This document shows, piece after piece, positions 25,490 to 28,288 of a stretch of 64,000 nt of DNA. The notes under the pieces are model-generated. The model was not told where the DNA came from, made no database searches, and was given only the letters and a program-made list of their open reading frames with translations. The stretch is from the NCBI GenBank assembly GCA_000004695.1, contig CM000151.3, positions 7,168,001-7,232,000 on the forward strand. Direction: 5' to 3'. Position numbers and translations under genes: made by a program. This stretch comes from Dictyostelium discoideum (taxonomy: Eukaryota). Numbering within the stretch: the first letter of the stretch is position 1; the number at the start of each line of letters is the position of its first letter.

Positions 25490-25990
25490 GTTTCTATGGA
25501 AGAATGTTTTTTTCCATATAATTTTGGAAGTGTGAGTTTGCGCAGTGTGTTAGTGTGGGTTTAATGAGAGTGTTTTTTTTTTTTTTTTTTTTTTTTTTTT
25601 GAACGTACATATTTATTTGTTTTTATTAATATTTCATAAATGAATTTGTAAATATAAAAATAAATTGTTTTTTTTTATTTTATTTTTTTGATTATGACAA
25701 TAATTTCAATAAAATGTAAAATATGATAAAAATAATTTTAATTATTGAAACACACACACTCACTCACTTTTTCCCACTAGTATTACACTTTCCAATGAAA
25801 AATAAATTAATATTGAAAAATAAAAAAATGGAAAAAAATGAAAAATAAAAATAATTAAATAAACAATAATATTACAAACACACTATTTCTTTCTCTCACC
25901 CACACAACCAATATACTAACACTTCTCATACACCCACCAACACACCTACACCCAGTTCAACACATTCATACACAAAGTTTAATATTACAC
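25490..25990. promoter_or_regulatory. Composition-skewed promoter region: a GT-rich block (25490-25575, gtgtgagtttgcgcagtgtgttagtgtgggtt) followed by an extended CA-rich block (25730-25985, cacacacactcactcac...cacccacacaacc...cacccaccaacacacctacaccc). These are candidate CA-rich or G-box elements 400-900 bp upstream of the Cys-rich ECM-like gene.
   Basis: C and G are rare in flanking intergenic DNA, so these (CA)n-like tracts stand out. CA-rich elements of this kind are established regulatory elements of Dictyostelium prespore/spore-coat and prestalk genes. Confidence 0.35.
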
Positions 25991-26375
25991 TTTAAAAAAC
26001 ATTCATATTAATGATTTTTATGATTTATTTATTTATTAATTTATTTAATTGTGTATTTTGATTATTGCTCTCTACTTTTTATATATTTTTTTTCAAATTT
26101 TATTATTATTTCAATTATTATTATTTTTTCCAGTACAAAGTACAAAAAAAAAAAAAAAAAAAAAAAAACCAAAAAAAAAAAAAAATTATTTATATTATTA
26201 CAAATAAAACAGTAACATTAAATATTAATAATTAGATACATTGAAAAAAAAAGAAATAATAATAATTAAGAATAAAAAAAAAAAAAAACTATAATAACAT
26301 TTCAATTGTATTTAAAAAAAAAAAAAAAATCTCATATACATATACCATTAATATAGTAAAAGTACCAGTAATAAA

Positions 26376-26698
26376 ATGAGAATATTAAAATTGGCAGCAC
26401 TTAGTTGCTTATTATTTATAGCACCATCACTTTCAATTAGTAAGTTTTTAGATTTATTTTTTATTATAAAAATAAATTAGATTTTTTCTTTTTTAAGATT
26501 AAAAAATAATTGGATTTATTTTAAAAAATAAATAATAAATATTAAACTATAATAAAATATAAAATAATAATAAATTAAAAACAATTACATAATATGAATT
26601 AAAATAATAACATAATTAAAATAAAATAAAAATAAAATAATAATAATAAAAATAATAATAATATATAAAAATATATAAAGTTAATAAAATTAAAATAT

Positions 26699-26737
<39 letters not shown>

Positions 26738-28288
26738 GATTGCGATGGTTTATCAAAAGATCAATGTGAACAAAACTTTCCTCAATGTCAAATTTTAACT
26801 GCAAAGAGTTGTTGTGGTGAAAGTAAATCATATTGTGCTGAAAGAGATAGTAACGATTGTCTTGCTAGTAAAATTTCATGTAAAAAGGATCCTCAAGGTA
26901 ATATTTATGAATTTTGGAGTAGTTGTACACCAAGTAGTGGTTTCACAGATTTTATTCCATCCAATGCAACATGTTCATCATTAAATTGTAATGCTCAACA
27001 AATGAGTTGCAAATATGTTCAACAAGCATGTCATGAAACATCATGTTGTCCTGATATTCCTCAATGTCAAATTCCTGCAACTGGCGGTGGCCCAGCTACT
27101 GGAAGTGCAACTGGTCAAGGCACATCAGGTGGTACACCAGGTTCTTGTGATAAAGTTAATTGTCCAAATGGTTACATTTGTACAATAGTAAATCAATTAG
27201 CAGTATGTGTTTCTCCATCATCCTCTTCGTCAAGTTCTTCATCAACCACTGGCTCACATACTACCACTGGTGGTTCAACCACTGGCTCACATACTACTAC
27301 TGGTGGTTCAACCACTGGCTCACATACTACTACTGGTGGTTCAACCACTGGCTCACATACTACTACTGGTGGTTCAACCACTGGCTCACATACTACTACT
27401 GGTGGTTCAACTACTGGTCCAACATGTGGTAATGTTAACTGCCCAAGAGGTTACCATTGTGAAGTTAGAGGTTCCCAAGCTGTTTGTGTTGCCGATGAAT
27501 TTGACTCATGTGCCAATGTTGATTGTGGTTCAGGTTACCATTGTAAGAATGGTGAATGTATTCGTGATAAAGTAGAATGCGATGCATGTGATCAAATTAA
27601 CTGCCCAAAGGGTCATCATTGTATATCTCAACCAAAAGGTGGCTGGATTGGTTCCCATAAGAAACGTCACTGGCAATTACACCCAGAACATTGTGGCGGA
27701 CGTCCAAATAAGATTAAAGTCATCTGTGTTCCATCACCAAAAGGTACTTGCAAGACTGTTCAATGTCCAAAAGGTTACAAATGCAAACTCTATGCTGATG
27801 GTCCAACATGTGTAAAGATTGAAAAACCAAAATGTCTCACTTGTAAAGATATGCATTGTGAGTCAAATGGATTACTCTGTGTCTTGACTCCACAAAAGAA
27901 GACTGATGAAGAATGTTGTCCAATTATTCCAATCTGTATCAATCCATCAACTATTGCCGCATCCACTATTGCCACTACAACTGCATCAACTCGTCACTCA
28001 ACTGCCTCAACAATTGCCTCATTAGTCACTGGTACCACAAGTGGTGGTGGTGGTATGGGTTCATTTGGTGGTCGATCCGATGAAGAATCAAGTGATCCAA
28101 ATGCTATACTTGGTCTCTTTGAAGACGATATTTTCTGGGGTGATAATGATGAATACTTTAGTGATAACTACCGTTATGTTGATGAAGAAGATATTGATGA
28201 AGATTTCAATGGTAATGATGAATTTGAAATTGATGTTGAAGGTGATTTCCAAGAAGATGATTTCGAAGAAGAATATGCATTTTATTAA
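26376..28288 (+). CDS. Secreted cysteine-rich, mucin-like extracellular protein with an acidic C-terminal tail, spore-coat or ECM-like. Two exons: 26376..26439 (signal peptide) and 26739..28288.
   Basis: Exon 1 (MRILKLAALSCLLFIAPSLSI) ends at donor GTAAGT and joins in phase 1 to the ORF extending upstream of 27002. The protein has about 7 Cys-repeat modules of the C-x-V-N/D-C-P-x-G-Y-x-C type (CDKVNCPNGYICT, CGNVNCPRGYHCEV, CANVDCGSGYHCKNGEC, CDQINCPKGHHCIS, CKTVQCPKGYKCK ...), a perfect 5x(STTGSHTTTGG) O-glycosylation-type repeat, and a D/E-rich tail. Confidence 0.7.
27244..27412 (+). repeat. Perfect 33-bp tandem repeat x5 (accactggctcacatactactactggtggttca), encoding (TTGSHTTTGGS)5 within the Cys-rich gene.
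   Basis: Seen directly. Units are identical apart from one synonymous position in unit 1, which implies recent expansion or concerted evolution. Confidence 0.9.

Follow-up and report, generated by a model that had tools for sequence, protein, structure and literature searches.

From the mound stage on, prespore cells of Dictyostelium synthesize spore coat proteins, which are stored lining the prespore vesicles (PMC11574339); these proteins are fucosylated within Ser/Thr-rich (S/T-rich), mucin-like domains (PMC11507795). The promoter of the spore coat gene cotC, which encodes SP60, contains GBF-binding CA-rich elements, an AT element and CudA regions (PMC3253789). Binding of GBF has been documented for cotC and for other prespore genes, and GbfA is needed for the induction of prespore genes by cyclic AMP (cAMP). 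Like the spore coat protein SP70, the products of ecmA and ecmB are secreted, Cys-rich and repetitive structural proteins of Dictyostelium development. Here, we analyzed a stretch of 64,000 nucleotides from chromosome 2 of Dictyostelium discoideum (referred to as the window), for which an earlier note, made from the letters alone, had proposed a gene of the spore coat or matrix type preceded by CA-rich and GT-rich promoter elements. The gene, located at 26376-28288 on the + strand, is cotB, and its product is SP70; the locus is thus an already known gene and not merely a spore-coat-like relative. cotB was reportedly cloned by Fosnaugh and Loomis in 1989, and its enhancer is said to have been dissected by the same authors in 1993, in Dev Biol 157:38-48. 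We consider it very probable that the window contains the cotB/SP70 locus with an enhancer at -400 to -650 from the ATG and with control of the GBF/Cud type.

The gene is cotB and encodes SP70

Exon 1 of cotB (26376-26439, + strand, 64 nt) starts with the ATG at 26376 and encodes a hydrophobic signal peptide, recognized by inspection (MRILKLAALSCLLFIAPSLS), in agreement with the description of SP70 as a secretory protein (PMC11507795). It is followed by an A/T-rich intron of 299 nt in phase 1 (26440-26738, + strand, GTAAGT...ATAG) and by exon 2 (26739-28288, + strand), which ends with the stop codon TAA at 28286-28288. Translation after removal of the intron yields the exact SP70 sequence: the product of 537 amino acids (aa), 46 of which are Cys, is 100% identical to SP70 of AX4 (UniProt P15269) over its full length. 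Members of the SP70 cluster found in a search of a large protein collection are EAL68882.1, XP_642813.1 and UniRef100_P15269, and the dictyBase identifier of cotB is DDB_G0276761 (PMC5923282 supplement). Comparison with AX4 cotB (P15269, XP_642813.1, DDB_G0276761) revealed no difference; the residues are the same throughout, the single intron fits and the neighbourhood matches.

Orthologous loci were compared in D. citrinum and in two divergent isolates labelled D. discoideum, and the whole region is collinear. The order of a calcineurin A-like gene, a Polyketide_cyc2 gene and cotB is kept in all of them, and the orthologous protein of D. citrinum is 74% identical to SP70 of the window. Among more distant species, D. 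purpureum, D. lacteum and P. violaceum are reported to have cotB in a single copy (PMC11574339). The window has an A+T content of 78% with short coding islands that are richer in G+C, as in Dictyostelium. An Rfam scan of 24000-29000 detected no RNA family.

A Pfam scan of the cotB product detected Dicty_spore_N (PF04562) and no other family at E<=0.1. The domain occupies the N-terminal residues 22-132 (26739-27070, + strand) and contains 16 Cys; the match extends over positions 1-114 of the 115 profile positions (E=1.4e-28, 100.4 bits with a cutoff of 22.3). A Dicty_spore_N relative of the cotA (SP96) group shows 30% identity to SP70 (E=6e-25). Like SP70, cotA (SP96) and other Dicty_spore_N proteins combine this N-terminal domain with Cys repeats and S/T-rich mucin domains, but SP96 has a long Ser/Ala/Thr tract at its end and no acidic tail there. 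The presence of Dicty_spore_N and the identity with SP70 bear out the proposal of a spore-coat-type gene and place cotB within the spore coat family. The likeness to the prestalk matrix proteins of ecmA and ecmB that had also been proposed did not hold: these have 24-residue Dicty_CTDC repeats, for which the cotB product gave no match at E<=0.1, and with Dicty_spore_N as the sole Pfam family at this threshold the relationship was rejected. In addition, ecmA and ecmB are prestalk-expressed and induced by DIF, while cotB is repressed by DIF (PMC3253789).

SP70 contains Cys repeats, mucin-like stretches and an acidic tail

Five Cys repeats were located in SP70 with a regular expression, at residues 158, 251, 279, 305 and 359 (CDKVNCPNGYIC, CGNVNCPRGYHC, CANVDCGSGYHC, CDQINCPKGHHC and CKTVQCPKGYKC). 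They have the form C-x-x-(V/I)-(N/D/Q)-C-(P/G)-x-G-(Y/H)-x-C and are follistatin/EGF-like. The first one is encoded at 27146-27208 (+ strand, residues 158-178), and the four further repeats of the CxxVNCPxGYxC type form the central Cys-rich region at 27425-27946 (+ strand). The Cys repeats seen earlier are therefore real, but the motif that had been given for them, C-x-V-N-C-P-x-G-Y-x-C, has zero matches, being one x short of the true C-x-x-V-N-C. The 1989 GenBank protein AAA33252.1 and a MetaClust representative read VIIVYLNQKVAGLVPIR at residues 313-329 (27677-27727), where the genome encodes GHHCISQPKGGWIGSHK. This stretch of AAA33252.1 is what the same DNA yields in a different frame (open reading frame 27582-27815), and the fourth Cys repeat is destroyed by the frame-shifted stretch, which points to an old sequencing error with compensating frameshifts in the original sequence.

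SP70 has two S/T-rich mucin-like stretches. The first corresponds to a tandem repeat of 33 bp (27242-27417, + strand), for which Tandem Repeats Finder reported a period of 33, 5.3 copies and 98% matches. At the protein level, it consists of five TTGSHTTTGGS units (residues 191-245) without a single mismatch, the perfect repetition that the earlier note had described. The second stretch begins with the peptide TDEECCPIIPICINPSTIAASTIATTTASTR (27902-27994, + strand, residues 410-440), on which O-fucose has been mapped experimentally (PMC11507795). Since O-fucose was mapped in this S/T-rich part of SP70, it is reasonable to regard the TTGSHTTTGGS repeats, by analogy, as a putative glycosylation module. 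The 33-bp repeat varies between strains: five perfect copies are present in AX4, and three, together with degenerate units, in the two isolates. In D. citrinum, a different S/T-rich repeat (TTGSSSTTSWTS...) is found at this site. The Cys domains flanking the mucin repeat are nearly invariant across AX4, the two isolates and D. citrinum.

The C-terminal tail (28085-28285, + strand, residues 471-537) is acidic, as had been noted before, with 42% D+E and a pI of 4.05. Its final 15 residues, GDFQEDDFEEEYAFY (28241-28285), are acidic and aromatic and do not differ between AX4, the two isolates and D. citrinum; the rest of the tail varies freely among these orthologues, in sequence as well as in length.

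Strand-pure C/A and G/T blocks lie upstream of cotB

cotB and its divergent neighbour share an intergenic region of 1.7 kb (24662-26375). Within this region, strand-pure blocks rich in C/A or G/T were found upstream of cotB that exceed the local composition, as is typical of GBF-type promoters. The G/T-rich GT block (GAAGTGTGAGTTTGCGCAGTGTGTTAGTGTGGG..., 25521-25577, + strand, -855 to -799 from the cotB ATG) contains 38% G and 4% C. The first C/A-rich block, CA-a (ACACACACACTCACTCACTTTTTCCCAC, 25743-25783, + strand, -633 to -593), contains 42% C and no G, and the main block, CA-b (25875-25985, + strand, -501 to -391), contains 35% C and 2% G. A further, short C/A box at 25321-25337 (+ strand, about -1050) reads AACCCACTACCACTAAC and is kept in all four genomes. 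In the remaining intergenic DNA, C and G amount to only 7.0% and 5.2%, respectively, resulting in Fisher P values of 1e-7 for CA-a, 4e-16 for CA-b and 5e-12 for the GT block. The maximal C or G counts in segments of 30 and 60 nt were above those of all 2000 simulations from a first-order Markov model of the cotB intergenic region. In the part of the 64-kb window without a long stop-free frame, which amounts to some 22.7 kb of presumably noncoding DNA, 16 strand-pure blocks were found, and four of them, including the longest (101 nt), are located in the 1.7 kb upstream of cotB.

The blocks contain the words CACCCA, CACAC, GTGTG and GTGGG, which are of the G-box/CA-rich kind, and three of the 12 copies of CACCCA in the window are clustered within 58 nt of CA-b. 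CA-a starts with (CA)5. Tandem Repeats Finder reported no array at the CA and GT blocks, which are mostly non-repetitive. A CA-rich tract had been proposed at 25730-25985; the richness in C and A is real, but the tract is not continuous, with an A-rich spacer of 96 nt (6% C) separating CA-a (25749-25779) from CA-b (25876-25985). Likewise, the GT-rich block proposed at 25490-25575 has its G/T core at 25521-25577; 25490-25520 is ordinary T-rich DNA and lies outside of it. On the 3' side, a run of 28 T (25573-25600) adjoins the GT block.

The sequence TA(G/A)TATTACACTTT is found after each of the two CA blocks (25778-25791 and 25980-25993, 13 of 14 nt identical, 202 bp apart), and a related sequence, ATATTACAAAC, sits ahead of CA-b. 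These positions are suggestive, but by a rough estimate a match of this kind is expected about once by chance in 700 nt of A/T-rich DNA; this 14-nt direct repeat was rejected as an element, and none is claimed.

Further short blocks of the G-box/CA-rich type, apparently noncoding, are present at 10744-10769, 21083-21125, 31538-31569 (such as TTGGGTGTGTGCG), 34329-34363, 62612-62654 and 62804-62839 (such as ACACACTCACACACACACAGC). Boxes of this type are thus not unique to cotB, and the genes beside the other boxes may be other post-aggregative genes.

SpaA binds the region of the CA blocks in vivo

Published data obtained with SpaA-YFP by chromatin immunoprecipitation and sequencing (ChIP-seq) place a summit at chr2:7193767, which is at -560 from the cotB start codon (PMC5923282 supplement). 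The enrichment of this peak was 5.4-, 8.6- and 7.8-fold in three experiments, and cotB occupies the eighth row in the table of SpaA peaks at protein-coding genes (PMC5923282). Because the annotated protein equals the product translated here, -560 corresponds to about position 25816 of the window, between CA-a and CA-b and just 5' of a conserved A/T-rich spacer at 25829-25881. cotB thus has a reproducible SpaA peak in its 5' intergenic region, as a target of SpaA should. In about 6 kb of chromosome 2 coordinates around cotB, no other SpaA summit is listed (PMC5923282 supplement).

Summits at comparable distances were reported for cotC (-538) and cotA (-656) (PMC5923282). cotC (SP60) resembles cotB as a co-regulated spore coat gene with its SpaA summit some 540-560 bp ahead of the ATG, and in both promoters C/A-rich blocks flank an A/T stretch, for cotC according to its description (PMC3253789). 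In a cotA-like paralogue, a cluster of G/T-rich boxes is present at -596 to -383; unlike the CA blocks of cotB, these boxes have the G-strand orientation. Words such as ACACACTCAC and TTCTCATACA are common to this cluster and the cotB region, at a frequency above that in simulated sequence (P about 0.001-0.002).

Expression of cotB rises between 11 and 12 h of development, and the gene is used as a standard prespore marker (PMC4403905), which speaks against constitutive vegetative expression. It is co-regulated with cotC, and cotB:lacZ serves as a prespore reporter (PMC3253789).

The upstream blocks are partly conserved

The intergenic region is 72% identical to D. citrinum overall. The conserved A/T-rich spacer between CA-a and CA-b (25829-25881, + strand) reaches 94%, the proximal two-thirds of CA-b (25918-25985) 91% and the GT block 88%, and CA-a (68%) keeps its C/A-rich character. 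All blocks are kept in the two divergent isolates and are found in the same place in the four genomes.

The best-conserved intergenic stretch lies closer to the gene, at 26024-26143 (+ strand), and contains TATATATTTTTTTTCAAA. Within it, the identity over 26030-26135 reaches 97% with D. citrinum (top 0.3% of segments) and 100% with the two isolates. Judging from this conservation and its sequence, 26024-26143 is probably the core promoter. In the cotA-like locus, a similar sequence, TTTTTTTTCAAAA, is found some 220 bp ahead of the ATG (about 3770-3782 of that locus).

A model for the control of cotB and its alternatives

The region at -400 to -650 stands out by its composition, is conserved in large part and lies under a strong SpaA peak in vivo. 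In the model that we propose, the enhancer would comprise CA-a, the conserved A/T spacer and CA-b. The C/A and G/T blocks would be candidate GBF sites conferring cAMP-dependent post-aggregative competence, and the A/T spacer would act together with Cud-type factors (SpaA, downstream of PKA) to provide prespore and spore specificity. By analogy, the spacer at 25829-25881 may correspond to the AT element in the cotC promoter. Transcription would start just after the conserved TATA/oligo-T element TATATATTTTTTTT, near 26095, and this start would imply a 5' untranslated region of about 280 nt. More tentatively, and with considerable doubt, we suggest that a C/A block, the invariant A/T spacer and a second C/A block, together with the words ACACACTCAC and TTCTCATACA shared with cotA, might constitute a composite GBF and SpaA module for spore coat genes.

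Several points weigh against this model. Binding of GBF to the cotB blocks is proposed by analogy with cotC. CACCCA is not enriched in the window as a whole (12 copies observed, 8.8 expected), so that only its local clustering is noteworthy. The ChIP fragments are about 300 bp long, a resolution too coarse to tell the CA blocks and the A/T spacer apart. The identity of CA-a to D. citrinum is not above background, as 63% of the segments of the same length equal or exceed it. The distal 36 nt of CA-b (25882-25917), which include one CACCCA (CTCACCCACACAACC), are identical in the two divergent isolates and absent in D. citrinum (about 9563 of its locus), which makes some of this cluster either dispensable or specific to certain lineages. 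Because the genomes compared are close (72-91% intergenic identity), footprinting is a moderate test, supportive rather than decisive. The position of the transcription start is probable and is read from the sequence of 26030-26135. Furthermore, 'prespore-specific' is a simplification for cotB, given that the gene is highly expressed in cup cells too during late development (PMC6198379). Finally, the GT block and the box at -1050 are about as near to the divergent neighbour as to cotB, and assignment of the GT block to cotB is not secure.

This last point leads to the possible, though improbable, explanation that some of the elements, above all the GT block (25521-25577) and the CA box at -1050, are those of the neighbouring gene or are common to both genes. 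The intergenic region is a divergent promoter of 1.7 kb, and shared ownership is possible given the roughly equal distances of the GT block from the two start codons (about 800-855 bp from the ATG of cotB and about 860-915 bp from that of the neighbour). Moreover, G/T- or C/A-rich boxes are found near several other genes of the window and are not specific for spore coat genes. Against this, the sole SpaA peak in the interval is on the cotB side, and the words AGTGTGAGT and TGAGAGTGT of the GT block also occur in the upstream cluster of cotA. A further explanation questions the blocks altogether: the CA- and GT-rich DNA would be neutral low-complexity sequence, such as decayed CA/GT microsatellites, and cotB would be controlled by the proximal region only. 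The (CA)5 at the start of CA-a would fit such an origin, as would the background level of conservation of CA-a, the dispensable 36 nt of CA-b and the fact that conservation is highest proximally, at 26024-26143. This explanation is nevertheless highly unlikely, since the blocks are mostly non-repetitive and yield no tandem array, are strand-pure far beyond the local composition and keep their position across four genomes; they are mirrored by the G-rich boxes of cotA at a like distance, and a top-ranked SpaA peak lies over them.

There is a minor but real chance that the enhancer is genuine and that the C/A blocks are not driven by GBF; these blocks or the A/T spacer would instead be sites recognized directly by Cud-type factors (SpaA, CudA) or another factor, or would serve mainly to exclude nucleosomes from very A/T-rich DNA. 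The factor found in vivo at 25816 is SpaA and not GBF, the conservation of the spacer exceeds that of CA-a, and the SpaA ChIP-seq paper gives no SpaA motif (the word 'motif' occurs 0 times). On the other hand, GBF sites are documented in the promoter of the co-regulated cotC, GbfA is required for the cAMP induction of prespore genes, and the words in the blocks are of the G-box/CA-rich kind. Such non-GBF functions are also compatible with GBF binding, the two not being mutually exclusive. We retain the enhancer at -400 to -650 with GBF/Cud-type control. For the earlier proposal of CA-rich and G-box elements driving prespore expression, this means that the class of the blocks and the SpaA peak within the flagged CA region stand, while GBF as the bound factor is proposed by analogy with cotC and the GT block may serve the other gene. 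Overall, what had been observed in the sequence is confirmed and its interpretation, apart from the likeness to ecmA and ecmB, is supported.

Neighbouring genes

The divergent neighbour (23923-24661, - strand) encodes a Polyketide_cyc2/Bet v 1-like protein of 145 aa in three exons (24661-24610, 24452-24238 and 24093-23923), and its ATG at 24661 sets the left limit of the shared intergenic region. Next to it, a gene for a calcineurin A-like phosphatase was found at 21408-23733, with a weak Metallophos match of 19 bits that is below the Pfam cutoff of 21.5. Syntenic orthologues of 614-623 aa are present in D. citrinum and the two isolates. The gene ends in a tract of CAA repeats (poly-Gln, 23651-23717); in the composition scan, this tract was the other long stretch rich in CA. 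A tRNA-Phe(GAA) gene is located at 19981-20054 (+ strand), and a cluster of G/T-rich blocks (GTTGGGTGTAGAGTGTG..., 19660-19794) lies just upstream of it, in intergenic DNA ahead of the calcineurin A-like gene. In the isolate GCA_054859385.1, an additional gene call of 305 aa (12200-13293 of its locus) is found between cotB and the downstream gene of 600 aa; it is absent from the window, from D. citrinum and from the other isolate.

Implications for spore coat gene control

The analysis of the cotB locus changes no open question, the gene and its use as a marker being already known. It has value mainly as a calibration: from raw sequence alone, the earlier note correctly recognized a Dictyostelium spore coat gene together with the class to which its control elements belong. 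The gain for cotB itself is modest: the SpaA summit is placed on the conserved CA-a, A/T spacer and CA-b blocks, and a probable core promoter is mapped. Both the mapped blocks and the probable core promoter could guide reporter mutagenesis. The composite module, if true, would refine a known system without adding a new kind of element, and it would provide a concrete sequence model for the targets of SpaA.

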